From a virus (lineage: Duplodnaviria > Heunggongvirae > Uroviricota > Caudoviricetes): a stretch of 64,000 bases of DNA. A model generated the notes under the pieces. That model worked only from the letters and a program-made list of their open reading frames with translations, was not told where the DNA came from and did no database searches. The position numbers and the translations under genes were made by a program. The stretch covers positions 103,998 to 167,997 of IMG/VR virus record IMGVR_UViG_3300049215_000227; one strand, written 5' to 3'. Below, in pieces: positions 25,271 to 56,000 of the stretch (positions are counted from its first letter, which is position 1; each line of letters opens with the position of its first letter).

Positions 25271-26101
25271 ATGATTAGAGTAGTAACTGATGACGGTTTG
25301 GCGTACAACATCGTCCCCACTATGTTTCCAGATGGCACATCTCAAGTCTGGAAGCTGCCAGAAGACCTTCTGAAGTCGCGCATCCTGGAAGTTACCTGGA
25401 ACTTTGAGAGTGAGCGCGAGATCATTGACCTACTCTCGCTTAGAAAGATTCAGCGCGGTCAATGGTATCTCCACATCCCTTTCCTCCCTTACGGACGCCA
25501 AGACAAAGAAGCGAGCAACACGTCGACGTTCAACCTCAGAGTATTTGCAGACTTAGTTAATCTGCTTGACTGCGCGGAGGTAACCTCAGTTGACTCCCAC
25601 AATCCAGAGGTTACTGGGCAGCTCATCAAGAACTTTACCAACGTCCCAGTGACCGCGCTGCACAAGTTGCTGGTCGATGAGACCCAGCCGGACTACCTCG
25701 TGTATCCTGACTTAGGCGCAAAGAACCGCTACTACACCTCTGACTTCTCCAGCATACCTCGCGTCATCTTCTACAAGGAGCGCGACCAGCTGACCGGTCA
25801 GATCACCGGACACACCCTATCGTACAGAGACGCTCAAGGCATCACCATCCAAGGCGCTGACATGGGCAAGATCGCTAGACCTGGACAGCGCTTCCTAATC
25901 GTTGATGACCTATGCGACGGTGGAGCTACATTCATCAGCATCGCGAGGAAGCTTCGCGAGCAGATTCCCGGCATCGAGATCGACCTGTTCGTGACTCATG
26001 GTGTCTTCAGTAAAGGTCGAGACATCCTTACAACTAACGGAATCAACAGAGTGTATACTACTAACAGCTTAACCAAAAACGGAGATGGATACAAAGTATG
26101 A
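25271..26101 (+). CDS. PRPP-synthetase-family pyrophosphokinase (candidate Adps of NARP1)
   Basis: 276 aa with the PRPP-binding loop FLIVDDLCDGGATF. Lies directly upstream of, and translationally coupled to, the NAMPT-like gene. Confidence 0.65.
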   Translation: MIRVVTDDGLAYNIVPTMFPDGTSQVWKLPEDLLKSRILEVTWNFESEREIIDLLSLRKIQRGQWYLHIPFLPYGRQDKEASNTSTFNLRVFADLVNLLDCAEVTSVDSHNPEVTGQLIKNFTNVPVTALHKLLVDETQPDYLVYPDLGAKNRYYTSDFSSIPRVIFYKERDQLTGQITGHTLSYRDAQGITIQGADMGKIARPGQRFLIVDDLCDGGATFISIARKLREQIPGIEIDLFVTHGVFSKGRDILTTNGINRVYTTNSLTKNGDGYKV

Positions 26102-30389: not shown

Positions 30390-30406
30390 TGAGCTTGGAC
30401 CTGTCC

Positions 30407-30496
30407 GTCGGTTACGGGGCAGAGCCTTATAAGCTCTTTAAGCACTAGATTAGTGTTGCACGAGGGTTCGACTCCCTACAGGTCTACCAACTTTAT
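30407..30496 (+). tRNA. class II tRNA (90 nt, long variable arm), anticodon loop CUUAUAA (UAU)
   Basis: Acceptor GGACCTG/CAGGTCT, A73 with CCA encoded. Anticodon stem AGAGC/GCTCT. Variable-arm hairpin CACTA/TAGTG. T-arm GAGGG-TTCGACT-CCCTA. Isolated from the main array. Confidence 0.4.
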
Positions 30497-36087: not shown

Positions 36088-37242
36088 ATGAAACCGACAC
36101 ATATTATGACGATCATGGACCTCGCGTACGAGGCACGTAAGGCGGGAGAAACCATGAACCCGTTGTTTACGGGTGAAGCTGGTCTGGGCAAGTCTCAGAT
36201 CGTGCAGCAATGGGTGAAGAAGCAGCGCGAGCGCAATCCGAACTTCGGGTTCATCGACCTCCGCATCGCTTACATGGAAGCACCTGACATGATTGGTCTT
36301 CCTGAGAACGAGCTGGTGAAGGAGCGCGGTCAGGAGTACAAGATCACGTCGCACTTCGTGCCAGACTTCTGGCCTCGCGACCCGGACTCCGAAGGTCTGA
36401 TCCTGTTCGAAGAGCCGAACCGCGGCAACACCGGCATCATGAACTGCCTCATGCAGATCCTCACCGACCGCAAGGTCCACAAGATGGAGCTGCCGAAGGG
36501 TTGGATCATCGCGGGTTGCATCAACCCCGACTCGTCCGAGTACGACGTCAACACGATGGATACCGCTCTCAAAGACCGCTTTGAGGAGTATGAAGTCGAG
36601 TATGACCACATGGCGTTCATCGACTACATGGACACTCAGAACTGGAGCGAGTCCATCCAGCGCTTCGTCGGCGATGCAATCTGGGTCTACAAGACCTCGA
36701 AGGAACTCGGTCAGAACGGCAAGTACATCTCGCCTCGTACCTGGTCGAAGGTCCAAGCTGCTGAAAAAGCAGGCGCTCGCAAGAACCGAATTCTCCACCG
36801 CATCGTGGTCGGCTCGATTCTCGGCAAGGACATCGGCAACGAGTACCACAAGTACTGCTATGACCAAGCTCCGGTGACGGCTTCTGACCTCATCAAGGAC
36901 AAGAAGGCTGCTATCGCTAAGCTCACCGAGCAGTCCAATCCTGAGTCGTACAAAGGCGACATGCTCGCTGCCACGGTGGAATCCATCACCAAGGCGTACG
37001 GCGGAGCGAAGAAGGACTGCAAGGCTGACCAGATCGACGAGGACACGATGGCAGAAGTTGCCAAGACGATCCCTGCCGACTACGCGGTCAACCTCATCAA
37101 GCAGTGCGGATTCAAGCAGACGAAAGGTCGCATGAGCGACTTCTTCCAAGACTTCTGCAAGCGCCATCCTGAGCTCATCGACGTGCTCAAGGCGAACTTG
37201 AAGCTGTCTCGGGCCACTGGAGTAGATAAAGAGAAGAAATAA
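36088..37242 (+). CDS. MoxR/CbbQ-family AAA+ ATPase (CobS-like)
   Basis: Walker A GEAGLGKS, Walker B LILFEEPNRG. RBS AGGAGGAAAG. Paired with the downstream VWA gene. Confidence 0.7.
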   Translation: MKPTHIMTIMDLAYEARKAGETMNPLFTGEAGLGKSQIVQQWVKKQRERNPNFGFIDLRIAYMEAPDMIGLPENELVKERGQEYKITSHFVPDFWPRDPDSEGLILFEEPNRGNTGIMNCLMQILTDRKVHKMELPKGWIIAGCINPDSSEYDVNTMDTALKDRFEEYEVEYDHMAFIDYMDTQNWSESIQRFVGDAIWVYKTSKELGQNGKYISPRTWSKVQAAEKAGARKNRILHRIVVGSILGKDIGNEYHKYCYDQAPVTASDLIKDKKAAIAKLTEQSNPESYKGDMLAATVESITKAYGGAKKDCKADQIDEDTMAEVAKTIPADYAVNLIKQCGFKQTKGRMSDFFQDFCKRHPELIDVLKANLKLSRATGVDKEKK

Positions 37243-37297
37243 GGGCCCAAGGTCGACCGGGAGTGGGTGTTCCTCCACCGCTCCCGGTCTAACCTTT

Positions 37298-37310
37298 TTC
37301 TGAAACTATT
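37298..37310 (+). promoter_or_regulatory. promoter-like motif B (TTCTGAAACTATT)
   Basis: Copy of motif B upstream of the VWA gene. Confidence 0.4.
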
Positions 37311-37335
37311 ACGGGTCAACGGAGGCCCAATACAG

Positions 37336-38733
37336 ATGTCATCACGCGTTAGACCAAAGTTGTCGAAAGAGTTACTTGACCACGAGTTCGTTCCAGTCGA
37401 GCTCAAGAAACGCTCGCTGGCGTCTGCCATCTACGAGTGCACGAAGACTCACCCCTTTCTGGGCTCAGTCCTTCAGTGCCTGACGATTCAGTACGGCCAC
37501 AGCATTCCTACGGCTGGCATCATGTTCAACACGGACGCGAAGCGCTGGGACATGATCATCAACCCGTACTTCTTCTGCAAGAAGTTGAACCTGCTCCAGC
37601 AGAAGGCCATCCTTCTTCACGAGCTGAGTCACATCACTCACAAGCACCCGCTTCGCGTGCCGTTCCTTAAGATTTCTGCTCGCAAGCGCATGCTCATGAA
37701 CATCGCGGCCGACATGGCGATCAACCAGTTCATCAAGAACTTGCCGCAGGGTTGCCCTCAGTGTCCTCCGCCTGACGCTCAGAAGCCGTGCGAGAACGAT
37801 CTCTGTCCGGGCAAGGGCATCTTCGTCGAGGACTTCCACGACATCGATCCTAAGACCCAGAAGCAGATCCCGTGGGAGAAGAATCGCACGATGGAGTACT
37901 ACTACGAGAAGCTCCTCCAGCGCTTCGACGACCCAGATAAGAACGAAGACCAGGGCGACGGAGATGGAAATGCGGGCGGTGGAGCCGATACCGGCGATCT
38001 TCCTAGCACCATCGACGAGCACATGTGGGACGGTGCCGCTGAGGAAGGCGACATGCTCGAGGCTACTGAGGAGCTTGTTAAGCGCGCCATGGTTAAGGCT
38101 AGGTTGGATTACTCCAGTCTGCCTGACTCGGTGAAGGAGCTTCTTGAGGACATCAAGGCTCGTCGCGCTGAGCTCAACTACAAGGCTCTCATCATGCTGG
38201 CGCTGAAGCGTCACGCTGCGGGTCACGACCGCAAGAACACTTGGACGCGCAAGTCCAAGCGCTTCGGCAATAAGGCTCCGGGCACCAAGGTCGGCGATCT
38301 GCCTAAGCTGCAGAACTTCATCGACACCTCAGGGTCCATCTCGATCGAGGAAGCTAACGAGTTCCTCGAGATCGTGGATCAGTTCTTGAGGGTTGGCGCT
38401 CGCAAGTGCAAGCTTGGCTTCTTCCACACGGCTCTATACAAGAACGAGGACTACAAGCTCGGTCAGAGAGTGAAGCGCGAGGACATTCAGTCTGGCGGCA
38501 CGGACTTGACTCCTGTCATGCAGGAGATCTTGAAGCGTAAGCCTGACCTCTCGGTCGTCGTGACCGACGGCTGTTACGGCGATGTTCCGGTTGAGTCTTG
38601 GATGAAGCCAGGTGAGAAGTGGCCAACCACGCTCTTCATCATCTCGAAGGGTGGAACTAAGGAGCATCCGCTGAAGCGTCTGGGCGAAACCGTTCAGATC
38701 CCTGACTCAGCGACGGCTAAAGGCAAGCGATGA
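37336..38733 (+). CDS. VWA-domain protein with N-terminal HExxH metallopeptidase-like domain (CobT/DUF2201-like MoxR partner)
   Basis: HELSHITHKH motif plus a C-terminal MIDAS motif DTSGSIS. RBS ACGGAGG. Confidence 0.6.
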   Translation: MSSRVRPKLSKELLDHEFVPVELKKRSLASAIYECTKTHPFLGSVLQCLTIQYGHSIPTAGIMFNTDAKRWDMIINPYFFCKKLNLLQQKAILLHELSHITHKHPLRVPFLKISARKRMLMNIAADMAINQFIKNLPQGCPQCPPPDAQKPCENDLCPGKGIFVEDFHDIDPKTQKQIPWEKNRTMEYYYEKLLQRFDDPDKNEDQGDGDGNAGGGADTGDLPSTIDEHMWDGAAEEGDMLEATEELVKRAMVKARLDYSSLPDSVKELLEDIKARRAELNYKALIMLALKRHAAGHDRKNTWTRKSKRFGNKAPGTKVGDLPKLQNFIDTSGSISIEEANEFLEIVDQFLRVGARKCKLGFFHTALYKNEDYKLGQRVKREDIQSGGTDLTPVMQEILKRKPDLSVVVTDGCYGDVPVESWMKPGEKWPTTLFIISKGGTKEHPLKRLGETVQIPDSATAKGKR

Positions 38734-39824
38734 TCCTACTAACTATGCTCATCATTCCGATCCTCGTCTCGCTAGGCTTCCTAGTGTTCGGGGGTCGGAA
38801 GTTTACCCTGAAGAAGTTTGCTCTGGACGTAGCTGTCCAAGCGCTGCTGATGTGTTGCGTGGCTTACGGAGTGAGCTGCCAGAACACGGCGGACACGGAG
38901 ATCTTGAACGGTCGCGTGACGAGCAAAACCAGAGATGAGGTCTCGTGCGAGCACAGTTACCAGTGCAACTGCTACCAGAGCTGCACGTCGGACGGTAAGG
39001 GCGGCGAGAGCTGCACCACCATCTGCCAGACCTGCTATGAGCATAGCTACGACGTCGATTGGGACGTTCACACCTCCATCGGTCGCACCATCGAGATCGA
39101 CCGAGTCGATCGTCAGGGCTTAGATGAGCCGCCTCGCTGGAGGTCTGTCAAGGTTGGAGAACCAATCTCCGTCTCTCACGGCTTCACCAACTACGTGAAG
39201 GGTTCGCCGGACACCCTCTTTCGCCACCAAGGGTTGGCCGAGAAGTTCAAGGACAAGATTCCTGGGTATCCTGGCAACATCTACGACTACTACAGGTTGA
39301 ACCGACTAGTCTCCGTAGGATTATCAGTAGGTGACGCTCAGCAGTGGAACCAGGACCTAATGGAGATGAACGCCGACCTAGGCGCCGCTAAGCAGGTGAA
39401 CGCAGTGGTCGTCGTCACCAAGAACCAGCCAGAGGACTACTTCTACGCGCTTGAGCAAGAATGGATCGGCGGTAAGAAGAACGACGTGGTGCTCGTGATA
39501 GATGTCGACGACGCCGGCAAGATCGACTGGACCAACGTCATGGCTTGGACCGACAACAAGATCTTCCAGGTTGCGCTCAACGACAGCGTTCGCCAGGTTG
39601 GGTCCCTGAACCGAGAGGCTATCATGGCAACGCTCAGAGAGAATATCTCTAAGAACTTCATCCGCAAGCCGATGAAGGACTTTGAGTATTTGAGTGGACT
39701 CATCAAGCCGACCACTGGCCAGTGGATCTTTGCGATGGTGTTTGGGTTAGCTTTGAGTTTGGGACTAGGTTTCTATCTTGAGAACAACGACATCTTTAAC
39801 GAAGAATATGGGAGGAGATGGTGA
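38730..39824 (+). CDS. Cys-rich two-pass membrane protein
   Basis: N- and C-terminal transmembrane helices. [35 protein letters not shown] cluster. Confidence 0.5.
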
Positions 39825-40396
39825 TGGGTACTGGAACTAAGATTGCTTTGGGTTTACTATTGGTGGCTGGGCTGTTTGGAGTTGTTGGCGTAAGCTCGCT
39901 GATCGGCTTCAACAACGAGTGCGTTCAGCAGGAAGCTGGGTTGGTTGCCCAGTACAAGCAGAACCAGAACAACTACGACAACTACATCAAGAAGCTGCAG
40001 GAAGTCGCTCAGGTTCCCTCGATGTATACCGAGGACCTCAAGAAGGTTTATCAGGCAGCGATCACTGGTCGCTACGGAGCGAACGGCTCCAAGGCCGTCT
40101 TCCAGTTCTTGAAGGAGCAGAATCCTCAGCTGGACGTCAGCGTCTACACCAAGATTCAGCAGATCATCGAGGCTGGTCGCAACTCGTTCGAGGCTGACCA
40201 GAAGACGCTCCTCGACAAGAAGCGAGTCTATCAGATCGAGCTTCAGCAGTTCCCGGGCAGCATCGTTGCCCGTGTCCTTGGGTTTCCCAAGCTTAACCTC
40301 GCGGAGTATGACATCGTGACCTCGCAAGAGACCGACGATGCCTTCCGCACCAAGAAGGCAGCTCCGATTCAGCTGAGACATAATGAAGGTAACTGA
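39818..40396 (+). CDS. LemA-family protein
   Basis: N-terminal transmembrane helix then a LemA-like helical domain ([18 protein letters not shown]...). Confidence 0.45.
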
Positions 40397-44281: not shown

Positions 44282-44674
44282 ATGAGCGTAAAGCAAGTCA
44301 TAGTCTTACGTAAGGATCTCAACATGCGCAAGGGCAAGATGGTTGCTCAAGGTGCGCATGCCTCTATGAAGGTCTTCTTCGATCGAATGGCGGCTCATGA
44401 CGACGGTTCCTACGTCATAGACGAAGACAGCGTCACCGACGAGATGAGGGAGTGGATAGATGGCACCTTCACCAAAGTATGTGTGGGAGTTTCCTCAGAA
44501 CAGGAGCTGTGCGATATCTACCAGCGAGCGCGAGATGCTGGATTACCTTGCTCGATTATCACCGACGCCGGCAAGACGGAATTCGGCGGTATACCTACTA
44601 AGACTGCTGTTGCTATTGGGCCTGATCGATCGGACAAAATTGACCCCATAACTGGCGAGCTTCCTCTCCTATGA
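44282..44674 (+). CDS. pth2: peptidyl-tRNA hydrolase, PTH2 family
   Basis: KMVAQGAHAS...TKVCVGVSSEQEL...AIGP matches Pth2. Confidence 0.65.
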   Translation: MSVKQVIVLRKDLNMRKGKMVAQGAHASMKVFFDRMAAHDDGSYVIDEDSVTDEMREWIDGTFTKVCVGVSSEQELCDIYQRARDAGLPCSIITDAGKTEFGGIPTKTAVAIGPDRSDKIDPITGELPLL

Positions 44675-46508: not shown

Positions 46509-47420
46509 ATGCCGACACTAAAGAACGGGCAATGGGTAACGCCCGAACCAGTTACCACCGAGACCTTTGCTAAGTCGTACGCCGAGAAGTACATCGTCGA
46601 GGGGCTCATGAAGTCCTCCGATACAGCTCTATTTAGGCGCTTTGAGGATAAGTACATAATCCCAAAAAGTCTTAGAAAAGAACTAGTTAAGACGCTCGAG
46701 GAGAACCTAAAGGTTGACTATCCCGATAAGAATACTAAGTTCAACCTCATGAAGTCTATGTACTTCGACTCGTCTAACTTAGACATGGTTCAGCATCACC
46801 TTTCCAAGGCTACGGACCGCTTCAAGCTCAGGACCCGTGAATACGCTCCTAACGGCAAGCTCCACAAGACCGACTTCACGTTCTTGGAGATCAAGGCTAA
46901 GCACGACAACATCACCGACAAGTTCCGCATCAAGGTTCCCAAGGACGTCATGGAGTCCTTCACTAAGGGAGCTCCACTCACTGCTGACGCTAAGCTTGTC
47001 AAGATGAACCCAAACATCGGCGTCGCCGACCTAGTTAAGAGAGTTGCAGACATCAATCAAGCTCTCGAGCTGTTTCACCTTCGCCCATCCTGCGAGACGC
47101 AGTACGTTCGCCACGCTTATACCGATGGTACGGCCAACGACGCTGGGCTTCGCGTTACGTTCGACGAGGGAGTTCAGTACAAGGTTCTCGACGTTATCCC
47201 AACTGGCATCAGCAACGAGCTCAGCAAGGGGAACGAGGAGAACTGCCACCTTAGAGGGATGGTCGAGAGGTACTCGCCTAACGACAACATCATCGTCGAG
47301 GTGAAGCACCACGGCACGATACCCGACTGGCTCACCAAGTTCATCAACGATCACAAGCTTGAGAAGACCAACTTCTCTAAGTACTGCTACTCGATCGCGA
47401 AGCATGCTACAGGCAAATAA
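46509..47420 (+). CDS. VTC/CYTH-like (triphosphate tunnel) domain protein
   Basis: FEDKYII, MYFDSSNLD, LRTREY, FLEIKAK resemble VTC polyphosphate-polymerase-domain motifs. Confidence 0.35.
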   Translation: MPTLKNGQWVTPEPVTTETFAKSYAEKYIVEGLMKSSDTALFRRFEDKYIIPKSLRKELVKTLEENLKVDYPDKNTKFNLMKSMYFDSSNLDMVQHHLSKATDRFKLRTREYAPNGKLHKTDFTFLEIKAKHDNITDKFRIKVPKDVMESFTKGAPLTADAKLVKMNPNIGVADLVKRVADINQALELFHLRPSCETQYVRHAYTDGTANDAGLRVTFDEGVQYKVLDVIPTGISNELSKGNEENCHLRGMVERYSPNDNIIVEVKHHGTIPDWLTKFINDHKLEKTNFSKYCYSIAKHATGK

Positions 47421-48467: not shown

Positions 48468-48540
48468 TGGGGAGTAGGCAAGCTGGTAATCCGCTCGGCT
48501 GTTAACCGAGACACCGCAGGTTCGAATCCTGCCTCCCCAG
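48468..48540 (+). tRNA. tRNA-Asn(GTT)-like (weak D-stem)
   Basis: Acceptor TGGGGAG/CTCCCCA, G73 + CCA. Anticodon stem CTCGG/CCGAG, loop CTGTTAA. T-arm GCAGG-TTCGAAT-CCTGC. Confidence 0.4.
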
Positions 48541-48563
48541 CCAAAAAGAAAGGAAATAAGTTT

Positions 48564-48636
48564 GCCGTGATGGCGTAGAGGGTCTGCGCGCTCGCCTGAA
48601 GAGCAAGAGGTCTCGGTTCGATCCCGAGTCACGGCA
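48564..48636 (+). tRNA. tRNA-Phe(GAA)
   Basis: Acceptor GCCGTGA/TCACGGC, A73 + CCA. D-stem GCGT/GCGC. Anticodon loop CTGAAGA. T-arm CTCGG-TTCGATC-CCGAG. Confidence 0.5.
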
Positions 48637-48644
48637 CCATGACA

Positions 48645-48719
48645 TGCATCTCAGTTCTACCGGGTGGAGAAGCTGGTCTGTTAAACCAGTAGCGGTGGGT
48701 TCGAGTCCCACGGGATGCG
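48645..48719 (+). tRNA. tRNA-Asn(GTT)
   Basis: Acceptor GCATCTC/GGGATGC, G73 + CCA. D-stem TTCT/AGAA. Anticodon stem CTGGT/ACCAG, loop CTGTTAA. T-arm GTGGG-TTCGAGT-CCCAC. Confidence 0.55.
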
Positions 48720-48726
48720 CCAGATT

Positions 48727-49023
48727 GAGACGAGCGAGGATATCGCGAGCCTTCCCAGGTTCGAGGAACTTCGCGGCTGCAAGAGCGACGTAGTGGATAA
48801 CGACCACCCACCGTGAGGTGAGCGACGGCTACAGAGACGAGTCGGCGAAAGCCGGGTGAAACGAGCGACAGCGTACGCGCAGCAACTGGAAATAGGTAAG
48901 CAGTGCTCCTGCTCGGAGGGCTTACGGGTACCAGGCTTGAGGCCAGAAGTAATTCTGGTCCTAGAGGGATGATGTCCTCCGCCGCACACACGGCGAAGAC
49001 AGAACCGCGGGTATTGCTCGTCT
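48727..49023 (+). ncRNA. rnpB-like: candidate RNase P RNA-like ribozyme (reduced type-A-like, about 297 nt)
   Basis: Terminal helix GAGACGAGC / GCUCGUCUC. GAGGAUAUCGCGAGCC resembles CR-I (GAGGAAAGUCCGGGCUCC), with compensating changes in an ACAGAACCGCGGGUAUU element resembling CR-V (ACAGAACCCGGCUUA). The 3' third runs parallel to E. coli M1 P15-P18: AAAUAGG...GCUUGAG-CCAG...CUGG-CCUAGA-UGAUG..UCC...ACAGAACC. The P3 and S-domain regions appear shortened. Confidence 0.4.
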
Positions 49024-49035
49024 CAAACAAATTTT

Positions 49036-49120
49036 GGAGAGTGAACTGATACGGGTTATCAGAGCCGCCTTGAAAGCGGATGGCTCCGCAAGGAGTAGGG
49101 TTCGAGTCCTTCGCTCTCCG
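49036..49120 (+). tRNA. tRNA-Ser(TGA), class II
   Basis: Acceptor GGAGAGT/GCTCTCC, G73 + CCA. Anticodon loop CTTGAAA. Long variable arm. T-loop TTCGAGT. Confidence 0.55.
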
Positions 49121-49225
49121 CCAAGTTGGGAGAAAGTTCCGGTTCGACTCCGGAGATAAGCCCACCGCCAGGTAACGCTGTTGGGTGGCCTAGTGTAACG
49201 GTTGCACGTCTCCCGTGCATTTTAT

Positions 49226-49313
49226 GGAAGGTTAACCGATACGGGTTATCGGCACTGCCTCGAAAGCAGATGGCTCCTGAATAGGGAGTGGGATTCGAGT
49301 TCTCAGCCTTCCG
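49226..49313 (+). tRNA. tRNA-Ser(CGA), class II
   Basis: Acceptor GGAAGGT/GCCTTCC, G73 + CCA. Anticodon loop CTCGAAA. Long variable arm. T-arm TGGGA-TTCGAGT-TCTCA. Homologous to 49036..49120. Confidence 0.55.
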
Positions 49314-49442
49314 CCAGGATTTATATGAGTGGCAATCAGTACAATAGTTTGCATGATCTTTTAAGTATGTTAGTAGCGTTGAATATCGTTGATAGGCAAG
49401 ACTTTGAATTAATGATAGACAAAGCTTATGATCAAGTTAAAT

Positions 49443-49530
49443 AGAGAGTGAACAGGTGAGGTCACCTGGCATGCCTGGAAAGCATTGCGCTCCTCGAAAG
49501 GGGAGTTCGTTTCGAGTACGACGCTCTCTG
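49443..49530 (+). tRNA. tRNA-Ser(GGA), class II
   Basis: Acceptor AGAGAGT/GCTCTCT, G73 + CCA. D-stem CAGG/CCTG. Anticodon loop CTGGAAA. Variable-arm hairpin CTCC..GGAG. Confidence 0.55.
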
Positions 49531-49538
49531 CCAGGTTT

Positions 49539-49745
49539 ATGAGTATGAATGAGTTGCTAGAAAAATACAAGTGCATGAACGAAGCATGCAAGGTAGAGTG
49601 GAGTGGAACTGTGGGTCCACCAAACTTCTGTCCTAAGTGCAAAGGCATGTACTGCGAGTGGCTGACGTTCAAGGACTGGGATTTTGACGGTGAAAGCTGG
49701 GTGAAGCGTGGAACATCATTGGTACCCGTGGCAGGTGATAACTGA
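49539..49745 (+). CDS. small zinc-ribbon protein
   Basis: ATG just past the tRNA. CMNEAC...CPKCKGMYC. Confidence 0.35.
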   Translation: MSMNELLEKYKCMNEACKVEWSGTVGPPNFCPKCKGMYCEWLTFKDWDFDGESWVKRGTSLVPVAGDN

Positions 49746-49810
49746 CCAAACCTGCTCGCGATGTGGAGCTAAGAGGTTCGGTAAGTATCCAGAAGAATGC
49801 AGTGGGATTT

Positions 49811-50140
49811 ATGAAGAAGAAAACAAAGATGTTCAGCGTGACCGCAGCGGATTGCCGCTGGGACGTCTTCCGCGGAAGCGGAGACGGAGGTCAGAAAAAG
49901 CAAAAGACGTCAAGCGGTGTCAGGTGCGTCCACGAGCCAAGCGGAGCCGAGGGAAAAGCAACCGACAGCAGAGAGCAAAGTAAGAACCGCAGGACAGCTT
50001 TCGAGAGGATGGTTAAGACACCAGAATTTCAGAGCTGGTTGAAGTTAAAGATTGAAGCTGGTCTTGGCAACGTAGAGATTGAAGAGACCACAGACAAAGG
50101 AAATAAGATTACCCGCAAGCTGGGTATGGAAGAAGTTTAA
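49811..50140 (+). CDS. ArfB-like peptidyl-tRNA hydrolase (class I release-factor GGQ domain)
   Basis: RGSGDGGQKKQKTSSGVRCVH matches GSGPGGQxVNKxSSAVRL of ArfB/RF, followed by a basic C-terminal tail as in ArfB. Confidence 0.5.
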   Translation: MKKKTKMFSVTAADCRWDVFRGSGDGGQKKQKTSSGVRCVHEPSGAEGKATDSREQSKNRRTAFERMVKTPEFQSWLKLKIEAGLGNVEIEETTDKGNKITRKLGMEEV

Positions 50141-50158
50141 AAAGTTTGGAGTGTGTTC

Positions 50159-50245
50159 CCTACGGCCGGCTGTAACCCGGTTGTCTCTAAATCGTAGGGT
50201 GGTAAGACGAATGGTTCGATTCCTTCACCCTCCACCAAATTTGCT
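50159..50245 (+). tRNA. tRNA-Tyr(GTA), class II
   Basis: Acceptor GGAGTGT/ACCCTCC (one mismatch), A73 + CCA. Anticodon stem GCCGG/CCGGT, loop CTGTAAC. Long variable arm. T-stem with a bulged T. Confidence 0.45.
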
Positions 50246-50253
50246 AGCTTAGA

Positions 50254-50327
50254 CCAATTGGCAGAGTCACTTCACTTAAAACGAAGTCAGTAAGGGTTCG
50301 ACTCCCTTAGCTAGCACCAAGCCCCAG
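50254..50327 (+). tRNA. tRNA with anticodon TAA (Leu-type) in a short-variable-arm (type I) scaffold
   Basis: Acceptor GCTAGCT/AGCTAGC, A73 + CCA. Anticodon loop CTTAAAA. 4-5 nt variable region. T-arm AAGGG-TTCGACT-CCCTT. Confidence 0.45.
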
Positions 50328-50331
50328 TAGA

Positions 50332-50405
50332 CCAACTGGAAGAGTCGTCTCTCTCAAAAAGAGAAGGTTGTGAGTTCGAATCTCACTTGGGGCACCAGAT
50401 TTAAG
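50332..50405 (+). tRNA. tRNA with anticodon CAA (Leu-type), type I scaffold
   Basis: Acceptor GCCCCAG/TTGGGGC, A73 + CCA. Anticodon stem TCTCT/AGAGA, loop CTCAAAA. T-arm GTGAG-TTCGAAT-CTCAC. Confidence 0.5.
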
Positions 50406-50428
50406 CCCTACTATGATACAGTTTAAGT

Positions 50429-50860
50429 ATGAAAAATTGTAGTAGATGTGAGCAAGATAAAGAAGAAAAGGACTTTAACAGGAGAGGAAAGAAGTTTTCG
50501 GTTTGGTGTAGAACTTGTTGTTCAGAGTACAACCGCGAGCGCTATAAAAATAGCAACGGAAAAGTACGCAAAAAATTAAAGCAGCAAGAAGCAGCACGCA
50601 AGCTTGAAATAGAAAAGAAAATAGTCGACCATCTCAAAAACAATCCGTGTGTAAAATGCCAAGAATCAAACATTTTAGTTTTGGACTTTGATCATATTCG
50701 TGGCGAGAAAGAGTTTAACATAGCTAAAGCAATATGGGATGTTTACTCTTGGGAAAGAATTGAAAAAGAGATTGCAAAATGTCAAGTGTTGTGTGCTAAC
50801 TGTCATAGAATAAAAACAGCTAAACAACTAAACACTTGGAAATTAAAGTATATCCCATAA
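50429..50860 (+). CDS. HNH homing endonuclease
   Basis: CVKCQESNILVLDFDHIRGEK...CANCH HNH motif. Sits between tRNA arrays. Confidence 0.6.
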   Translation: MKNCSRCEQDKEEKDFNRRGKKFSVWCRTCCSEYNRERYKNSNGKVRKKLKQQEAARKLEIEKKIVDHLKNNPCVKCQESNILVLDFDHIRGEKEFNIAKAIWDVYSWERIEKEIAKCQVLCANCHRIKTAKQLNTWKLKYIP

Positions 50861-50870
50861 AGGAGATTTT

Positions 50871-51224
50871 ATGGGAGTAACTACACGTGAAGCAGATGAA
50901 TGGGCAAGTGGCTGCAGCAAAAGTTCAAGGAGAAATTACGTAAACAATTTTAATCGTAATCAGCCAGCGCATGAGAGAGCAATTTGGGGCCCAATGTCCC
51001 ACGGCAATTCTAGTTCTAAACCCTCTCAAGTCGAAGTAGCGCAGCGCTTGCGTGAACGATTATGTAGATATAAAGGTGTTTACGAAATAGTCATAGAAAC
51101 ACAAGTATGGGGTTTAGAATATCAAATTTTTGAAAAGGAAACTAACAAGTTCATAGGCGGTTATCCCACCCAGGAGATAGCGATGAAAATAGCCAATGAA
51201 CGATTTGACAAAAGAAAAATTTAA
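50871..51224 (+). CDS. hypothetical protein
   Basis: 117 aa. RBS AAGGAGA. Confidence 0.4.
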   Translation: MGVTTREADEWASGCSKSSRRNYVNNFNRNQPAHERAIWGPMSHGNSSSKPSQVEVAQRLRERLCRYKGVYEIVIETQVWGLEYQIFEKETNKFIGGYPTQEIAMKIANERFDKRKI

Positions 51225-51227
51225 CGT

Positions 51228-51295
51228 GGTCCCACCTGTGGATAGGTACTTAGCCTTCTAAGCTGAGGAAGTAGGTTCGACTCCTACTGGGACTA
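51228..51295 (+). tRNA. tRNA-Arg(TCT), compact 68-nt form
   Basis: Acceptor GGTCCCA/TGGGACT, A73 + CCA. Reduced D-arm. Anticodon stem TTAGC/GCTGA, loop CTTCTAA. T-arm GTAGG-TTCGACT-CCTAC. Confidence 0.45.
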
Positions 51296-51299
51296 CCAT

Positions 51300-51373
51300 G
51301 CTCAAGTAACCCAACTGGAAGAGGTACTAGGTCGAGAGCCTAGGTGTTGTGGGTTCGACTCCCACCTTGAGCA
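51300..51373 (+). tRNA. tRNA with anticodon GAG (Leu-type), type I scaffold
   Basis: Acceptor GCTCAAG/CTTGAGC, A73 + CCA. Anticodon stem CTAGG/CCTAG, loop TCGAGAG. T-arm GTGGG-TTCGACT-CCCAC. Confidence 0.45.
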
Positions 51374-51381
51374 CCAAGTTT

Positions 51382-51449
51382 GTCCCCGCCCGAGGATGGG
51401 TCGTTGGTTTCCTAAACCGACAAAGCCGGTTCGACTCCGACCGGGGATA
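51382..51449 (+). tRNA. tRNA-Arg(CCT), compact 68-nt form
   Basis: Aligns position-by-position with 51228..51295. Acceptor GTCCCCG/CGGGGAT, A73 + CCA. Anticodon stem TTGGT/ACCGA, loop TTCCTAA. Confidence 0.45.
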
Positions 51450-51457
51450 CCAGATTT

Positions 51458-51543
51458 GGAGAGTGAACTAGGGAGGTCCCTGGTCTTGTTTGCTAAACAA
51501 TGAGCTCCCGCAAGGGAGTGCGTTTCGAGTACGCCGCTCTCCG
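51458..51543 (+). tRNA. tRNA-Ser(GCT), class II
   Basis: Acceptor GGAGAGT/GCTCTCC, G73 + CCA. D-stem CTAG/CTGG. Anticodon loop TTGCTAA. Long variable arm. Confidence 0.55.
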
Positions 51544-51620
51544 CCATAATTCAACTCACAAGTCGTAAAAATACAGGATCCCTGGAGAGATTTGATTTAC
51601 TCAACTGGTAAAATGTAGCG

Positions 51621-51833
51621 ATGCGCACGTATGACCGCCAGAGCAGCAGAAATCAGTCTAGGATTGATTGGGAAGACGAGCAGGATAGCTTGTACTGGTG
51701 CGACTACTTCATCAGGGACGACATGTGGGAAGGTCCCTCGATGGAGGATGTCATGCTTGGTCGCCTGTTCACGATGTTGACTAAGTTACAAATTAGGTCT
51801 GCTAAGGTTCAATTAGAGTACTTGTATTGGTGA
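51621..51833 (+). CDS. hypothetical protein
   Basis: 70 aa. Confidence 0.3.
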   Translation: MRTYDRQSSRNQSRIDWEDEQDSLYWCDYFIRDDMWEGPSMEDVMLGRLFTMLTKLQIRSAKVQLEYLYW

Positions 51834-51846
51834 TATAATAAGCTGT

Positions 51847-52206
51847 ATGAAGCAGCTTATTAAGCACATCAAAGATAGAGTAGTCGGCAAGGTTCCAGCT
51901 GGGTCAAAGCGCTCAGGTCACTGGCCTAAGGTTAGAGCTGATCACTTAGTTGCCAACCCCAAGTGCGCCGTGTGCGGCGGGGACAAGAACCTAGAAGTTC
52001 ACCACATCAAGCCCTTCCATCTTCACCCCGATCTGGAATTGAATCCGGATAATCTCATCACCCTCTGCGAGAGCAAGCTCAACGGCGTCAACTGCCACCT
52101 TCTCTTCGGTCACCTAGGATCCTTTAAGTCATTCAACGTAGACGTCAAGAAAGACTCGACGGATTGGATCGACAAGATCAAGAACCGCCCAACGCACGAA
52201 TCCTGA
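51847..52206 (+). CDS. HNH endonuclease
   Basis: CAVCGGDKNLEVHHIKPF...NLITLCESKLNGVNCH. Confidence 0.55.
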   Translation: MKQLIKHIKDRVVGKVPAGSKRSGHWPKVRADHLVANPKCAVCGGDKNLEVHHIKPFHLHPDLELNPDNLITLCESKLNGVNCHLLFGHLGSFKSFNVDVKKDSTDWIDKIKNRPTHES

Positions 52207-52216
52207 TCGTATAAAG
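52201..52216 (+). promoter_or_regulatory. promoter-like motif A (TCCTGATCGTATAAAG)
   Basis: Copy of motif A directly upstream of ORF 52222. Confidence 0.4.
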
Positions 52217-52221
52217 ATGTC

Positions 52222-52680
52222 GTGAACATCTTTGTTACAGATGAGGATCCACGTGTATCTGCGCAAGCTCTCGACGACAAGCGCGTAATCAAGATGATTC
52301 TTGAGTCAGCTCAGATGCTGTCAACTGCCATGAACGTCCGCGGTGGCAAGGGTCCATACAAGACAACACATGTCAACCATCCATGTTCCGTATGGGCTAG
52401 GACAAGCAGGGATAATTACGTGTGGCTGCTGATGCACTTCTCGGCGCTATGCGACGAGTACTCGCTTCGCTACGGGAAGCTACACAAGTGCGGCAGCTAT
52501 TTTCCGGAGTTCACTCTTGGCGCGATGCTCATTCCAGCTGGACCGCTTACGCCATTTGCCAACTGCACTCCGCACAAGAATCTTGAAACGATCACTGCGT
52601 ATCGCCTCACCATGAAGGAAAAGTGGGCAGCCGACAAGCGCAAGCCCACCTGGAAAAATAATTTTGCATTTAGCTGGTAG
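52222..52680 (+). CDS. possible pyrimidine-dimer DNA glycosylase (DenV/endonuclease V-like)
   Basis: NHPCSVWARTSRDNYVWLLMHFSALCDEY and a C-terminal KPTWKN resemble the GHP..fW / L..rH...EM..RGY / RPTWYK motifs of the T4 DenV family. Tentative. Confidence 0.3.
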   Translation: MNIFVTDEDPRVSAQALDDKRVIKMILESAQMLSTAMNVRGGKGPYKTTHVNHPCSVWARTSRDNYVWLLMHFSALCDEYSLRYGKLHKCGSYFPEFTLGAMLIPAGPLTPFANCTPHKNLETITAYRLTMKEKWAADKRKPTWKNNFAFSW

Positions 52681-52695
52681 TCCTGGTATACTAAT
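52681..52695 (+). promoter_or_regulatory. promoter-like motif A variant (TCCTGGTATACTAAT) upstream of tRNA array D
   Basis: Variant of motif A, followed by a GGTGTGCGTTGG...CCAACCACACC hairpin leader. Confidence 0.35.
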
Positions 52696-52813
52696 CTTAT
52701 GAACAACGCAATCTACACAATCCAGTTCATGGAAGCCGAGCAAGAACGTTCGGTGTGCGTTGGTCTATTCGCTTAATCCCAACCACACCTAAATTCTCCT
52801 CTTAAGCAACCGT

Positions 52814-52888
52814 GGCGCGTTCGTCTACGCTTGGCTAGGATACTTGGCTTTCAACCAGGAGAACCGGGATCGACACCCGGCCGCGCTT
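52814..52888 (+). tRNA. tRNA-Glu(TTC) with non-canonical T-loop AUCGACA
   Basis: Acceptor GGCGCGT/CCGCGCT (6/7 paired) + T + CCA. Anticodon stem CTTGG/CCAGG, loop CTTTCAA. T-arm CCGGG-ATCGACA-CCCGG. Confidence 0.45.
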
Positions 52889-52896
52889 CCATACAT

Positions 52897-52970
52897 GTCC
52901 GCATCGTCTACGCTGGCTAGGACCTCCGATTCTCAGTCGGAAAAACTCGGATCGACACCGAGTGCGGATA
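52897..52970 (+). tRNA. tRNA-Glu(CTC) with non-canonical T-loop AUCGACA
   Basis: Acceptor GTCCGCA/TGCGGAT, A73 + CCA. D-stem GTCT/GGAC. Anticodon stem TCCGA/TCGGA, loop TTCTCAG. T-arm CTCGG-ATCGACA-CCGAG. Confidence 0.5.
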
Positions 52971-52997
52971 CCAAATTTTCTGATTCTAAAATCTCCC

Positions 52998-53594
52998 ATG
53001 GAAAGACGCTTTGTCAAGTTGGGAGATAAGTACTACATGGTTGAAGTCAACGAAAAAGGACTTCAACTCGTTCCTGCCACCCAAGAAAATATCGTTGACG
53101 AAACTCTCGAGCACGCTATCGTTGGAGATGACGTCGAGTTGGGCGGCAACTTCCTACAAAAAATCGTCGATGACGCCAAGAACGAACTCGTCGAGCATCT
53201 CAAGTATGGTCTCAAAGAGACTGTGCTAGCTTGCCTCGGTTTTGAAAAGAACACGTGGGGCAACCAAAAAGGTTTTAAAGTTGACCACTGCAACGGTCGA
53301 ATGAGTGAAGTAACTAATCACATCAAGGTTACTCTTCAGCAAATCCTCAAGGATACTAAAGTAGAAGACCTTGGCATCACTGACAAAGAGAAGTCATACT
53401 TGTGCCAAGCGTACAGAAAAGACCTGCTTGAGCATTACCAGCGCGAGCTTCGCGGTCGCATGTGGCGCGAAGTTGAGCACATGGCTCACGAAGACGCTAA
53501 GAAGATTGCAGACGGCTTGATCAAGGAGCGCACGGAAACGGTCGGCAAGATCGTCCTCGACAAGCTCTTCGCTTCTGTCCCTAAGAAGGTGTAA
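52998..53594 (+). CDS. hypothetical protein
   Basis: In-frame ATG after the tRNA (MERRFVKLGDKYY...). Confidence 0.4.
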   Translation: MERRFVKLGDKYYMVEVNEKGLQLVPATQENIVDETLEHAIVGDDVELGGNFLQKIVDDAKNELVEHLKYGLKETVLACLGFEKNTWGNQKGFKVDHCNGRMSEVTNHIKVTLQQILKDTKVEDLGITDKEKSYLCQAYRKDLLEHYQRELRGRMWREVEHMAHEDAKKIADGLIKERTETVGKIVLDKLFASVPKKV

Positions 53595-53596
53595 CG

Positions 53597-54193
53597 ATGG
53601 GTTGCGATATCCACATGTTCCTGGAGTACCGCTGCGGTAACGGCATGCCTTGGCAAGCCGACGACCACCACGTTCCTACGTGGGAGAGTCGCTGCAAGGA
53701 CGACGAGCCGGACAACAAGGAAAAGTGGTGCGACCATTGTCTTAACGACGGTGACCAGCAAATCTACTGCGACAGCGGTTATCTAGACTTCCGCCAGATC
53801 GATGCAACGACTCGAGACTATGGTCTCTTTGGCTTACTTGCCAACGTAAGATCTAGCGGACCGCGCGACCCGCGAGGTCTCCCAGAAGACGTAAGCGACA
53901 TGATCAAGGCGGCTGCAGACAAGTGGGACTCTGACGGCCACTCTCACTCCTTCATGACTCTTGAGGAGTTTAAGAATGTCCTCCTCGAAGAGGCAAAGTA
54001 TCCTGTCTCAACTAGCGACGTTGCCTTCTATGAGTGGGAAGACTTTGAGCGCGGCAAGTATCCGCCATCCTTCACTTCAATCATTAACTACGCAGAAAAA
54101 CTGAAACAAGAGAAGAGCATCGATAAACATCTCCTTGGAGAAGGCACGACGTCTGAAGTCCAAGTAAGAGTTGTATTTTGGTTTGATAACTGA
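53597..54193 (+). CDS. hypothetical protein (Cys/His-rich N-terminus)
   Basis: 198 aa with CDIHMF...CKDDEPDNKEKWCDHC. Confidence 0.4.
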   Translation: MGCDIHMFLEYRCGNGMPWQADDHHVPTWESRCKDDEPDNKEKWCDHCLNDGDQQIYCDSGYLDFRQIDATTRDYGLFGLLANVRSSGPRDPRGLPEDVSDMIKAAADKWDSDGHSHSFMTLEEFKNVLLEEAKYPVSTSDVAFYEWEDFERGKYPPSFTSIINYAEKLKQEKSIDKHLLGEGTTSEVQVRVVFWFDN

Positions 54194-54199
54194 GGTTTT

Positions 54200-54637
54200 A
54201 TGAGTTGGTTCACGGTATATCTAGTCACTTGTTTAGTCATTCCAACTATATATGGGATGGCTTCAATCGAGGAGCACGACAAGGATACGCACGTCACGAT
54301 CAAGCACCCCGTTGAGTCTATAGCTGTGGGTCTCTTCGCGTTGCTCTGGCCTATCGCCATCCCGCTCGACATCGTGAGCAGGATCAAAGAAAACTTCAAG
54401 AAGAACACGACCAGTCGGGCTAAGGATATTTTAGGTGAATACGGCTTCTCAGATCGAGGCGAAAGAAGTAGGAATCGCGACGGCGACTTGTCGTTCTTGG
54501 TCAACATGTCCGAGTCTGATCTCAAGACAGTTATGTTGGCTTATCGACGCAAGTGGATTAGCCTCAGTTCCCAAAACTTCGAGATGATCCGGAATGAGCT
54601 CATGAACCGCAACGCGGAGAGGGACCTGCTCAAATGA
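54200..54637 (+). CDS. membrane protein
   Basis: Two transmembrane helices at the N-terminus. Confidence 0.4.
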   Translation: MSWFTVYLVTCLVIPTIYGMASIEEHDKDTHVTIKHPVESIAVGLFALLWPIAIPLDIVSRIKENFKKNTTSRAKDILGEYGFSDRGERSRNRDGDLSFLVNMSESDLKTVMLAYRRKWISLSSQNFEMIRNELMNRNAERDLLK

Positions 54638-54960
54638 GTGACCTAGCGCATCAATTCCACGTACTCCTGAAACAATTGAGAGCAGACGGGAACGACGTGC
54701 GCATCGTGTATGACGTCCCCAAAGGAACGCTAACCTTTCAAGGTTGCATCAAGTTTGAAGGAGATCGCAATGGGCGAAGTTATTCAGCTGCACAAGCATC
54801 GGGAGAGCAAGGAACTGACGGAGTACAAGTCGATGCTGCTCCAGATGGACAAGCTCGAGCTGATGGAGGAGATGGTTCGCTTTCAAGAGTGGAGAGCTCG
54901 GGAAGGCAGGCTGACGATGGAGATGATGCAGCGAGGAATTCCGCTGTTCCAAGCGCTTGA
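54634..54960 (+). CDS. hypothetical protein (3' half probably off-frame read-through)
   Basis: Begins plausibly, then turns Gly/Asp/Ala-rich where it overlaps 54770..55057. Confidence 0.25.
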   Translation: MSDLAHQFHVLLKQLRADGNDVRIVYDVPKGTLTFQGCIKFEGDRNGRSYSAAQASGEQGTDGVQVDAAPDGQARADGGDGSLSRVESSGRQADDGDDAARNSAVPSA

Positions 54961-55057
54961 GAACGCCGCTGAAACTATTGAGCTGCGGACCTTGACGCGC
55001 TCGTATCGTCGTCATCTGGAGTTTGAGCTTGCCGCAAAAACCGATCCTCAAGCTTAG
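54770..55057 (+). CDS. hypothetical helical protein
   Basis: ATG after a strong AAGGAG RBS (MGEVIQLHKH...). Confidence 0.45.
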   Translation: MGEVIQLHKHRESKELTEYKSMLLQMDKLELMEEMVRFQEWRAREGRLTMEMMQRGIPLFQALENAAETIELRTLTRSYRRHLEFELAAKTDPQA

Positions 55058-55589
55058 ACCATCGCAGCTAGTGCTCGGCATGATTGAGGTCGACGCCAAG
55101 ATCAAGAAGATCAGGCGCATGACGCTCAAGCAGAAGCGCAAGTACGTCAGCGACAAGAAGATTCCAGTCGTCAAGTACTACGAAGAGTTCTACATCATCG
55201 ACCATCACCACTTCGTGCGAGCGTGCTGGGAAACTGGCATCAAGAAGGTTCAAGTAAAAGTAATCGCAGACTTCACTGGCATGAGCGAGCACAGTCTCAT
55301 GCACGAGATGAAGGACAGAGGTTGGATTTACAACAGAAGTTTGACCGGCGGAAAATGCGACAGCATGGCTTGGTTTCCAGCTGACATCCGTTGCATGGCC
55401 GACGATCCATACAGAAGCCTATCCTGGGCAGTCAGGGAAGCTGGCGGGTATCCAAAGACTGGCAAACCGTTTGAAGAGTTTGAGTGGGCAGACAAGCTTC
55501 GACAAGTCATTAAGATTGAGGACTTACGTTCCAACTTTAACAAGGCCGTAAAGATGGCCCTTAGGCACGTAAAGAAGAGCAAAAAATAA
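55023..55589 (+). CDS. ParB/Srx-like nuclease-domain protein
   Basis: IPVVKYYEEFYIIDHHHFVRAC matches the ParB-like nuclease domain (GHHRxxA box). Confidence 0.4.
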   Translation: MSLPQKPILKLRPSQLVLGMIEVDAKIKKIRRMTLKQKRKYVSDKKIPVVKYYEEFYIIDHHHFVRACWETGIKKVQVKVIADFTGMSEHSLMHEMKDRGWIYNRSLTGGKCDSMAWFPADIRCMADDPYRSLSWAVREAGGYPKTGKPFEEFEWADKLRQVIKIEDLRSNFNKAVKMALRHVKKSKK

Positions 55590-55603
55590 TTTTTTAAATT
55601 AGC

Positions 55604-55624
55604 AAAAACACGTGGTAGAATAAT
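55604..55624 (+). promoter_or_regulatory. promoter-like motif C (AAAAACACGTGGTAGAATAAT) upstream of tRNA array E
   Basis: Second copy of motif C, preceded by TTTTTTAAATT. Confidence 0.45.
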
Positions 55625-55805
55625 CTCATGTTTACGACATTCGACACAAATTCAGTTCTGAAAGGGATGCAGCGCGATCTACGCGCTATCGCACCCCCAT
55701 GTGTCGCAGGTAGCATTGACGGCCATAAGCCTCAAACTACCAAACGCCTCCCGCTTTGGGCGTAATAATAAATACGATAGCGGAACTCAACTAAAAATTT
55801 AATAC

Positions 55806-55877
55806 GGGCCGTCATGTACCAAGGTGGCGAACTGCACTTGCACTGCGGTTGGGTCGATTCGATTTCGACACGGTCCA
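55806..55877 (+). tRNA. tRNA-Ala(TGC)
   Basis: Acceptor GGGCCGT/ACGGTCC, A73 + CCA. Anticodon stem CTGCA/TGCGG, loop CTTGCAC. T-arm GTCGA-TTCGATT-TCGAC. Confidence 0.4.
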
Positions 55878-55916
55878 CCAACTTTAACGCGCTATTTAGC
55901 GCATGTTTTTAAAAAC

Positions 55917-55987
55917 GGGGTTATAGCTCAGTGGTAGAGCTACCGGCTCTTAACCGGAAGACCAGTGTTCGATTCACTGTAGCCCCA
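55917..55987 (+). tRNA. tRNA-Lys(CTT)
   Basis: Canonical fold. Acceptor GGGGTTA/TAGCCCC, A73 + CCA. D-arm GCTC-AGTGGTA-GAGC. Anticodon loop CTCTTAA. T-arm CAGTG-TTCGATT-CACTG. Confidence 0.6.
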
Positions 55988-56000
55988 CCAAAGTTTATGT

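Follow-up and report, generated by a model that had tools for sequence, protein, structure and literature searches.

An RNA gene of the ribonuclease P (RNase P) family lies within a tRNA array in a 64,000-nucleotide (nt) stretch of IMG/VR record IMGVR_UViG_3300049215_000227 (positions 103,998 to 167,997 of that record, hereafter the window). RNase P is the enzyme that trims tRNA precursors, and we put the probability at about 0.8 that the element represents an intact RNase P catalytic RNA gene, maintained by selection in a large lytic phage's own tRNA array. A gathering-threshold Rfam scan over the whole window assigned positions 48726–49029 (+) to RNaseP_bact_a (RF00010) at 153.2 bits, compared to a gathering threshold of 100 (E = 2e-47), a match to RNase P RNA far beyond chance. 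The alignment is full-length, spanning model positions 1–367 of 367, and the element measures 304 nt as aligned. Independently of the model, the minimum free energy (MFE) fold (z = –3.2 versus dinucleotide shuffles) recovers the paired regions P1, P2, P3, P9, P12 and P15–P18. The GGU motif in loop L15 and the P6 pseudoknot, both present, are marks of type A as opposed to types B and M. Judged by these sequence features, the element is a true type A RNase P RNA of the bacterial kind, rnpB-like and of the form that lacks P13 and P14.

An earlier note on this DNA had recognized a structured, non-tRNA element of about 300 nt between tRNA-Asn and tRNA-Ser, on which the tRNA calls and Rfam agree, and its assignment to the RNase P family is borne out by the full-length RNaseP_bact_a match (153 bits). 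The terminal pairing that it described corresponds to P1 in the model pair list, ACAGAACCGCGGGUAU at 48999–49014 is indeed conserved region V (CR-V), and the 3′ third, which it had likened to P15–P18, aligns with those helices of type A. An intron was the alternative it raised; however, a permissive Rfam scan of 48600–49150 returned RNase P and tRNAs only, with no group I intron, intron-containing tRNA, tmRNA or other Rfam family. The tRNAs that flank the RNase P RNA are complete, each with its own CCA, and no tRNA halves occur around the element. A protein-coding reading was also rejected: the antisense open reading frame (ORF) at 48629–49165 (178 aa) also runs across several tRNA genes and matches nothing in Pfam.

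Conservation of the fold and the catalytic core

Relatives were sought by scanning IMG/VR for the signature AAATAGG...GCTTGAG...CCTAGA, which returned 51 loci, and a second IMG/VR scan that used the P13/P14-less spacing as its signature added further loci. Confirmation of the candidates with Rfam and nhmmer left ~24 viral contigs in which an RNase P RNA sits within a tRNA array; sizes among the carriers include 463, 456, 360, 332, 265, 177, 169 and 168 kb (individual loci are given three-digit labels, e.g. L010). The RNase P RNA and every tRNA lie on the same strand in 22/22 loci where tRNAs were found. The distance to a flanking tRNA is often 1–10 nt. Counted from the model ends, the gaps are 3 and 6 nt for the window RNA; they are 6 and 8 nt in L006 and L138, and 19 and 1 nt in L222.

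Eleven viral array RNAs were aligned with MAFFT and evaluated against the structure of the window RNA, including P4 and P6. Standard pairs occupy 84% of cells, compared to 63% in shuffles and 34–42% with slid partners, and 62 of the 85 pairs changed on both sides, a count reached by 0/500 shuffles. The P4 pseudoknot, whose conservation the earlier note had put forward as a check, is paired at 8/8 positions in the window RNA and in 10/10 viral homologs, with covariation at 6/8 pairs, while P2 is 97% paired (7/7 pairs covary) and P18 is 99% paired (7/8 covary). The low values for P1, P6 and P17 in this count are due to the alignment register; a direct check revealed P6 as a 4-bp Watson–Crick helix in 11/11 RNAs, realized in five variants (GAGC/GCUC, AAGC/GCUU, GAAC/GUUC, GAGU/ACUC and GGAU/AUCC). 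The closest relative, L010, resides on a 177-kb contig; its RNA is 73% identical to that of the window, and the flanking proteins are collinear and 70–76% identical. Between these two RNAs, 18 pairs changed on both sides and 4 changed on one side and remained paired, with 3 broken, a pattern of substitutions that we read as evidence that purifying selection has acted on the fold in this phage lineage.

To assess the integrity of the catalytic core, the window RNA was aligned with 62 RNase P RNAs from cells; 84 columns of this alignment are conserved at ≥95%. The window RNA is identical at 68 of these, and most of the 16 differing columns are pairs changed on both sides (P4 45/285, 48/283 and 49/282; P15 164/206; P10/P11). 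Four elements of RNase P RNA have a described function: the bulged U of P4 binds catalytic metal ions, the GGU of L15 pairs with the tRNA 3′-RCC, a J5/15 adenosine contacts U(–1), and P9–P11 contact the T-loop (PMC10731613). The window RNA keeps all four. In particular, the GCAA of J5/15 is invariant in the viral alignment and near-invariant in cellular RNAs.

Secondary structure and comparison with other type A RNAs

The coordinates of the structural elements were taken from the RF00010 model alignment and its pair list, and that of an extra hairpin from the MFE fold (Table 1). P5, P7 and P10/P11 are likewise present, and P13/P14 are absent at ~48861–48864, where 2 nt stand in for 43 model positions. 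The extra hairpin sits in an insertion region of the model alignment, and similar hairpins are found in L010, L006, L031 and L049.

Table 1. Positions of the RNase P RNA, its structural elements and the neighbouring tRNA genes (window numbering)
Feature	Position	Strand	Basis or remark
RNase P RNA gene	48726..49029	+	RF00010 match; P1 closes at 49025
P1	48726–48736 with 49014–49025	+	Covariance-model pair list; also in MFE fold
P2	48738–48744 (GGAUAUC) with 48971–48977	+	Pair list
P3 hairpin	48746–48763	+	Short, 7 bp; model alignment, pair list
CR-I GAGGAACUUCGCGG	48763–48776	+	Model alignment
P4	48768–48770 and 48772–48776 with 49005–49012	+	8/8 pairs; U48771 bulged
P6	48783–48786 (GAGC, in J5/7) with 48911–48914 (GCUC, in L17)	+	
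Specificity domain	48789..48878	+	P7 to P12 and junctions; model alignment, pair list
P8	48793–48807	+	
P9	48808–48822	+	GUGA loop
J11/12 ACAGAGACGAG	48831–48841	+	
P12	48842–48855	+	Short, 5 bp, GAAA loop
J12/13 GGGUGAAA	48854–48861	+	
J5/15 GCAA	48882–48885	+	Counterparts of E. coli A248/A249, contacts of substrate N(–1)
P15-L15-P16-P17 module	48886–48934	+	Model alignment, pair list
L15 AAAUAGGU	48890–48897	+	GGU at 48895–48897 is the CCA-binding motif
P18	48941–48960	+	8 bp, GUAA tetraloop; model alignment
Extra hairpin CGCCG-CACACA-CGGCG	48980–48995	+	Between P2 and P4 3′ strands; MFE fold; P19-like optional helix
CR-V ACAGAACCGCGGGUA	48999–49013	+	P4 3′ strand at 49005–49012
Spacer AACAAAUUUU	49026–49035	+	10 nt, ends in U(–1); RNase P RNA 3′ trailer and tRNA-Ser 5′ leader
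tRNA-Asn(GUU)	48646–48719	+	Encoded CCA to 48722; 3 nt upstream of RNase P RNA
tRNA-Ser(UGA)	49036–49123	+	Encoded CCA; ~10 nt after P1 end of RNase P RNA
tRNA array	48468..59194	+	29 ARAGORN tRNA genes and further Rfam-only calls, all on + strand

This anatomy departs from the earlier note at several points. The stretch GAGGAUAUCGCGAGCC (48737–48752), there labelled CR-I, comprises the 5′ strands of P2 and P3, and because these were mistaken for CR-I, which lies downstream of them, the proposed P4-like pairing AUAUCGCG/CGCGgGUAU is incorrect and gives way to the P4 of Table 1 with its bulged U. The suggestion that P3 and most of the specificity domain are truncated holds for P3, which is short, but not for the specificity domain, in which P7–P12, J11/12 and J12/13 are present; the description of a catalytic-domain-dominated RNA is thus abandoned, since only P13/P14 are absent and P12 is shortened. 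The notion of a special reduced architecture must likewise be toned down, because ordinary Betaproteobacteria share the P13/P14-less form.

Indeed, loss of P13/P14 was considered and dismissed as a viral hallmark: a genome scan revealed the same form in Burkholderiales, Nitrosomonadales, Bdellovibrionota and others. The ordinary rnpB genes of Cupriavidus, Bordetella, Hydrogenophaga, Nitrosomonas, Methylotenera, Bdellovibrionota, some Chloroflexota and others lack P13/P14 and score 215–249 bits, and because such cellular RNAs from Burkholderiales and Bdellovibrionota also pass RF00010, the absence of these helices is compatible with membership of the family. RNAs of this kind from Betaproteobacteria, Bdellovibrionota and some other phyla share the specificity-domain form of the window RNA, carry GUGAAA 33–34 nt upstream of L15 and are 300–340 nt long; they differ in being single housekeeping genes with no tRNA array nearby. 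Within IMG/VR, GUGAAA occurs 33–34 nt from L15 in every array copy, as opposed to 77 nt in the non-array copies, which are probably host flanks.

Relative to typical type A RNAs such as E. coli M1 and that of Thermotoga maritima, the window RNA shares the full-length model match, P1–P12, P15–P18, the P4 and P6 pseudoknots, the bulged U, CR-I to CR-V, the L15 GGU and the GNRA loops of P9, P12 and P18. It differs in being apparently virus-encoded, in lying within a tRNA array, where the neighbouring tRNAs are 3 and 10 nt away, in lacking P13/P14, in its short P3 and P12, in the extra hairpin between P2 and P4, and in having neither an evident promoter of its own nor an rnpA gene found nearby in the window. 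Archaeal type A RNase P RNA also lacks P13/P14 (PMC4919922); however, archaeal RNAs lack P18 as well and need several proteins, whereas the window RNA keeps P18 and is best matched by the bacterial model (the scan suppressed weaker matches to other families of that clan).

Viral lineages and origin

The window RNA is at most ~70% identical to any sampled cellular RNA. In a neighbour-joining tree built from 280 columns, without bootstrap and with long branches, the viral copies group together and form about three clusters. One of these (L006, L015, L028 and others) adjoins Burkholderiales, and the window RNA falls in a separate long-branch viral group with L010, L166, L222, L024 and L058. By these comparisons the window RNA was not picked up recently, and either one capture or several may lie behind the viral copies.

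Some individual relatives are of interest in their own right. In L034 (11470–12119 (–) of IMGVR_UViG_3300024331_000007, a 360-kb contig), the RNase P RNA homolog is 650 nt long owing to an insertion of ~340 nt exactly at the P13/P14 site. The insertion holds a 130-aa ORF with a CxxC...HH...CxxCH (HNH-like) motif and no Pfam match; it could represent a homing-endonuclease or intron-like insertion in a ribozyme gene, or else a disrupted copy. L222 (JAKFYJ010000091.1) is a 6.8-kb contig labelled as an 'Elusimicrobia MAG' (metagenome-assembled genome), with 27 tRNAs, an HNH gene and an RNase P RNA of 103 bits located 1 nt from the next tRNA. Its RtcB is 52% identical to that of the window, and the contig is probably a piece of phage DNA that ended up in the bin of a bacterial MAG. 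In one viral group (L012, L014, L042, L046 and L049), the array also holds a tmRNA gene that lies no more than a few kb from the RNase P RNA, and the L099 array holds a gene for a CCA-adding enzyme.

Presumed substrates and proposed mechanism

All 31 tabulated tRNA genes of the window encode CCA, and 25 of them have U at –1, compared to 23% T in the window. Encoded CCA and U(–1) are documented substrate determinants of RNase P (PMC10731613), and the 31 tabulated tRNAs of the array are the presumed substrates of the phage RNA.

We propose that the RNA is transcribed as a unit of a polycistronic tRNA precursor. Its 5′ end would be made by 3′ maturation of tRNA-Asn, 3 nt upstream, and its 3′ end by an RNase P cut at 49035/49036, the +1 position of tRNA-Ser, where the last letter of the 10-nt spacer supplies the preferred U(–1), followed by trimming; with the 3′ end set by this cleavage, RNase P activity would release its own RNA. 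The transcript would adopt the canonical type A core shown by the covariation and would most likely work with the RnpA protein of the host, since bacterial RnpA proteins are interchangeable between species (PMC4919922). The predicted activity of the resulting enzyme is removal of the 5′ leaders from the phage's ~30 pre-tRNAs, in which the retained L15 GGU and J5/15 adenosines would read the encoded 3′-CCA and the U at –1. The benefit, more speculatively, may be added or host-independent capacity for tRNA 5′-processing during infection, for example to handle a burst of tRNA transcripts, to become independent of host rnpB after shut-off, or to evade defence.

Alternative explanations

Several observations weigh against this interpretation. 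The viral RNAs score lower in RF00010 (103–209 bits) than their cellular counterparts (215–249 bits), and at the J18/2 position that matches E. coli A333 the window RNA has G, as read by eye from the alignment. No convincing promoter or terminator was found between the RNA and its neighbours, consensus sites being not significantly above shuffles, and for this reason co-transcription is deduced from spacing. A gene for RnpA was likewise not found: 26 ORFs scanned in and around the array gave no Ribonuclease_P Pfam match, and when all 422 six-frame ORFs were searched by phmmer for similarity to RnpA of E. coli and B. subtilis, the best E was 0.024, a negative that covers the 64-kb part of the genome and was obtained in part with approximate query sequences. 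Neither a terminase nor a portal or major capsid gene occurs within the 64 kb examined, so that viral identity rests on gene content and on IMG/VR-classified relatives. Finally, as host RNase P RNA is stable, a phage would have no obvious need for an extra copy.

The nature of the replicon bears directly on one alternative, namely that the window is a cellular chromosome, a megaplasmid or a tRNA island and the RNA is simply the rnpB of that replicon. The missing terminase, portal and capsid genes would fit this possibility, as would the existence of large plasmids with suites of translation genes (PMC7162821) and of tRNA arrays in bacteria (PMC6582537). Overall, however, the window has the look of a large lytic phage: nearly all coding is on one strand, ORFans are numerous, and two prohead-protease-like genes occur along with genes for ribonucleotide reductase, thymidylate synthase, RNase H, ATP-dependent DNA ligase, RtcB, nicotinamide phosphoribosyltransferase (NAMPT) and phosphoribosyl pyrophosphate (PRPP) synthetase; the host-like genes are only of kinds common in large phages, and no ribosomal or other core housekeeping genes were seen in the window. 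Gene content and order fit large myoviruses, with the adjacent gene pair 38730–40396 present in 435–506 large-myovirus records; one member of the pair is annotated as a virion structural protein and was found in 435 large-phage records. Moreover, the cellular rnpB genes that were found have 0–2 tRNAs within the stretch examined, and none lies in an array. A non-phage identity of the window thus appears very improbable.

If the replicon is a phage, the RNA might still be a passenger, that is, a host rnpB copy captured together with tRNA genes, now decaying and no longer functional. Pick-up of host genes is common in phages, the viral scores fall below those of cellular homologs, and the L034 homolog is interrupted by its ~340-nt ORF-containing insertion. 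Such a scenario is nonetheless very unlikely given that P4 and P6 are intact in all copies and that compensatory double changes outnumber broken pairs 18 to 3 against L010; in addition, no sampled cellular RNA exceeds ~70% identity, the viral copies cluster together, and the RNA has been kept at the same locus while phage proteins diverged to 40–76% identity. A functional RNA could also serve mainly in a role other than bulk pre-tRNA processing, such as sequestering or redirecting host RnpA, or acting on specialised phage substrates (tmRNA-like or tRNA-like elements, or mRNA processing). The RNA would have to share the host protein, as rnpA was not found in the window; host RNase P would normally be enough for tRNAs with optimal CCA and U(–1); and the viral RNAs are divergent, with lower Rfam scores. 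Against these considerations stands the conservation of the catalytic core and of all substrate-reading elements (bulged U, L15 GGU, J5/15 adenosines and P9–P11), which a mere protein sponge would not need, and the RNA's unvarying position among tRNAs suggests that these are its substrates. We therefore regard a different principal role as unlikely, and favour an RNase P RNA that processes the phage's own tRNAs.

Relation to known systems and implications

RNase P RNA counts as a housekeeping ribozyme of cells and organelles. Plastid and cyanelle rnpB offer a parallel, insofar as an RNA subunit is encoded in a small, dependent genome and its protein partner elsewhere; they differ in belonging to organelles of vertical descent and not to viruses, and in lying outside any tRNA array. 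Full-text literature searches turned up no description of an RNase P RNA encoded by a phage or other virus, although subscription-only papers lay outside them and a prior mention is possible. A survey of huge phages names tmRNA, release factors and ribosomal proteins, and not RNase P RNA (PMC7162821), and a 2016 review of RNase P diversity contains no viral example (PMC4919922). Among deposited phages (INPHARED, August 2025), no phage homolog of any viral subtype was detected by blastn, whether the query was the window RNA, one of three other viral subtypes or the Rfam consensus; the few matches were bacterial-looking. One candidate carrier, Microcystis phage MaAM05 (L053, MW495066.1, 109323–121411), was rejected: the neighbours of its RNase P RNA are fliM, fabI, engB, mtgA and glyS, and this region of the 274-kb record looks like bacterial chromosome and not phage.

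Non-coding RNAs in phage tRNA clusters are not without precedent. GOLLD RNA is a large structured non-coding RNA that travels with mobile tRNA clusters of phages and mycobacteria (PMC6582537), yet it has no known biochemical function, whereas the window RNA comes from a ribozyme family that acts on the products of the neighbouring genes. The translation genes of huge phages (tRNA arrays, tmRNA, release factors and deformylase) occupy the same neighbourhood and follow the same logic; by contrast with ribosome-associated factors, the window RNA would act on phage tRNA transcripts. The molecule itself belongs to a known family; what appears to be new, at the level of sequence, is a virus-borne ribozyme amid its own substrates, with divergent lineages of its own.

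A broader proposal, to which we give somewhat less than an even chance, is that large phages maintain long-evolving RNase P lineages that are transcribed with the array and self-released, freeing tRNA maturation from the expression of host rnpB. If this is true, such independence would matter after degradation of host DNA, after transcription shut-off or in the face of a defence that limits tRNA processing, and virus-encoded RNase P would be on record for the first time, with copies in dozens of huge-phage genomes that escaped notice because programs for finding tRNA and tmRNA do not search for RNase P RNA. A virus-borne RNase P RNA maintained by selection would extend the phage translation toolkit upstream, to tRNA maturation, and the viral copies would offer naturally minimised, highly diverged type A ribozymes for structure–function work. 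They raise the questions of whether host RnpA is used, whether the RNA is active alone, whether it processes itself from the array, and whether it protects against shut-off or tRNA-processing defence. For annotation of large phages, Rfam-wide scans of viral contigs are needed beyond tRNA and tmRNA finders.

Genomic context

The array and its surroundings contain further genes related to tRNA and translation. The small ORF at 44282–44674, conserved near the RNA in relatives, was considered as a candidate RnpA and rejected, since it encodes Pth2 peptidyl-tRNA hydrolase (110 bits); it is kept 1–4 kb upstream of the RNase P RNA in L024, L058 and L115. Together with an ArfB-like RF-1 domain protein (49763–50140), peptide deformylase (60199–60702) and RtcB (22734–23939), Pth2 forms a set of tRNA and translation-rescue genes around the array. 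The ArfB-like gene is one of several small ORFs among the array tRNAs, the others encoding two HNH endonucleases, a ParB-like nuclease and a DenV-like pyrimidine-dimer glycosylase; these four lie between tRNA blocks (51847–52206, 56093–56635, 55023–55589 and 52222–52680) and may reflect mobile-element traffic that shuffles the array.

The two tRNA-Ser genes downstream of the RNase P RNA are separated by a 102-nt spacer (49124–49225) in which ARAGORN and a permissive Rfam scan call nothing. It contains a T-arm-like motif, CCGGTTCGACTCCGG, an end reading ...CCACCGCCA, and an anticodon-arm-like hairpin at 49203–49219 that was also scored as terminator-like; the spacer may be a tRNA remnant or a rearranged tRNA. 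Far from the array, ARAGORN calls two isolated tRNAs, a tRNA-Met(CAU) at 21167–21245 and a 93-nt tRNA-Ile(UAU) at 30397–30489, neither reported by Rfam at the gathering threshold, and the latter might be insertion-bearing or a false call. Elsewhere in the window, the PRPP synthetase and NAMPT genes are adjacent with a 4-nt overlap (25271–27564), an NAD+ salvage pair as in other large phages, and an ATPase (phrog_1297) is followed by a DUF2201 protein with putative metallopeptidase and VWA-like domains (36088–38733). Just upstream of the array, a polyphosphate-related VTC-domain protein, of which identical copies occur on contigs of 50–200 kb, is encoded at 46509–47420, and is 76% identical in L010.

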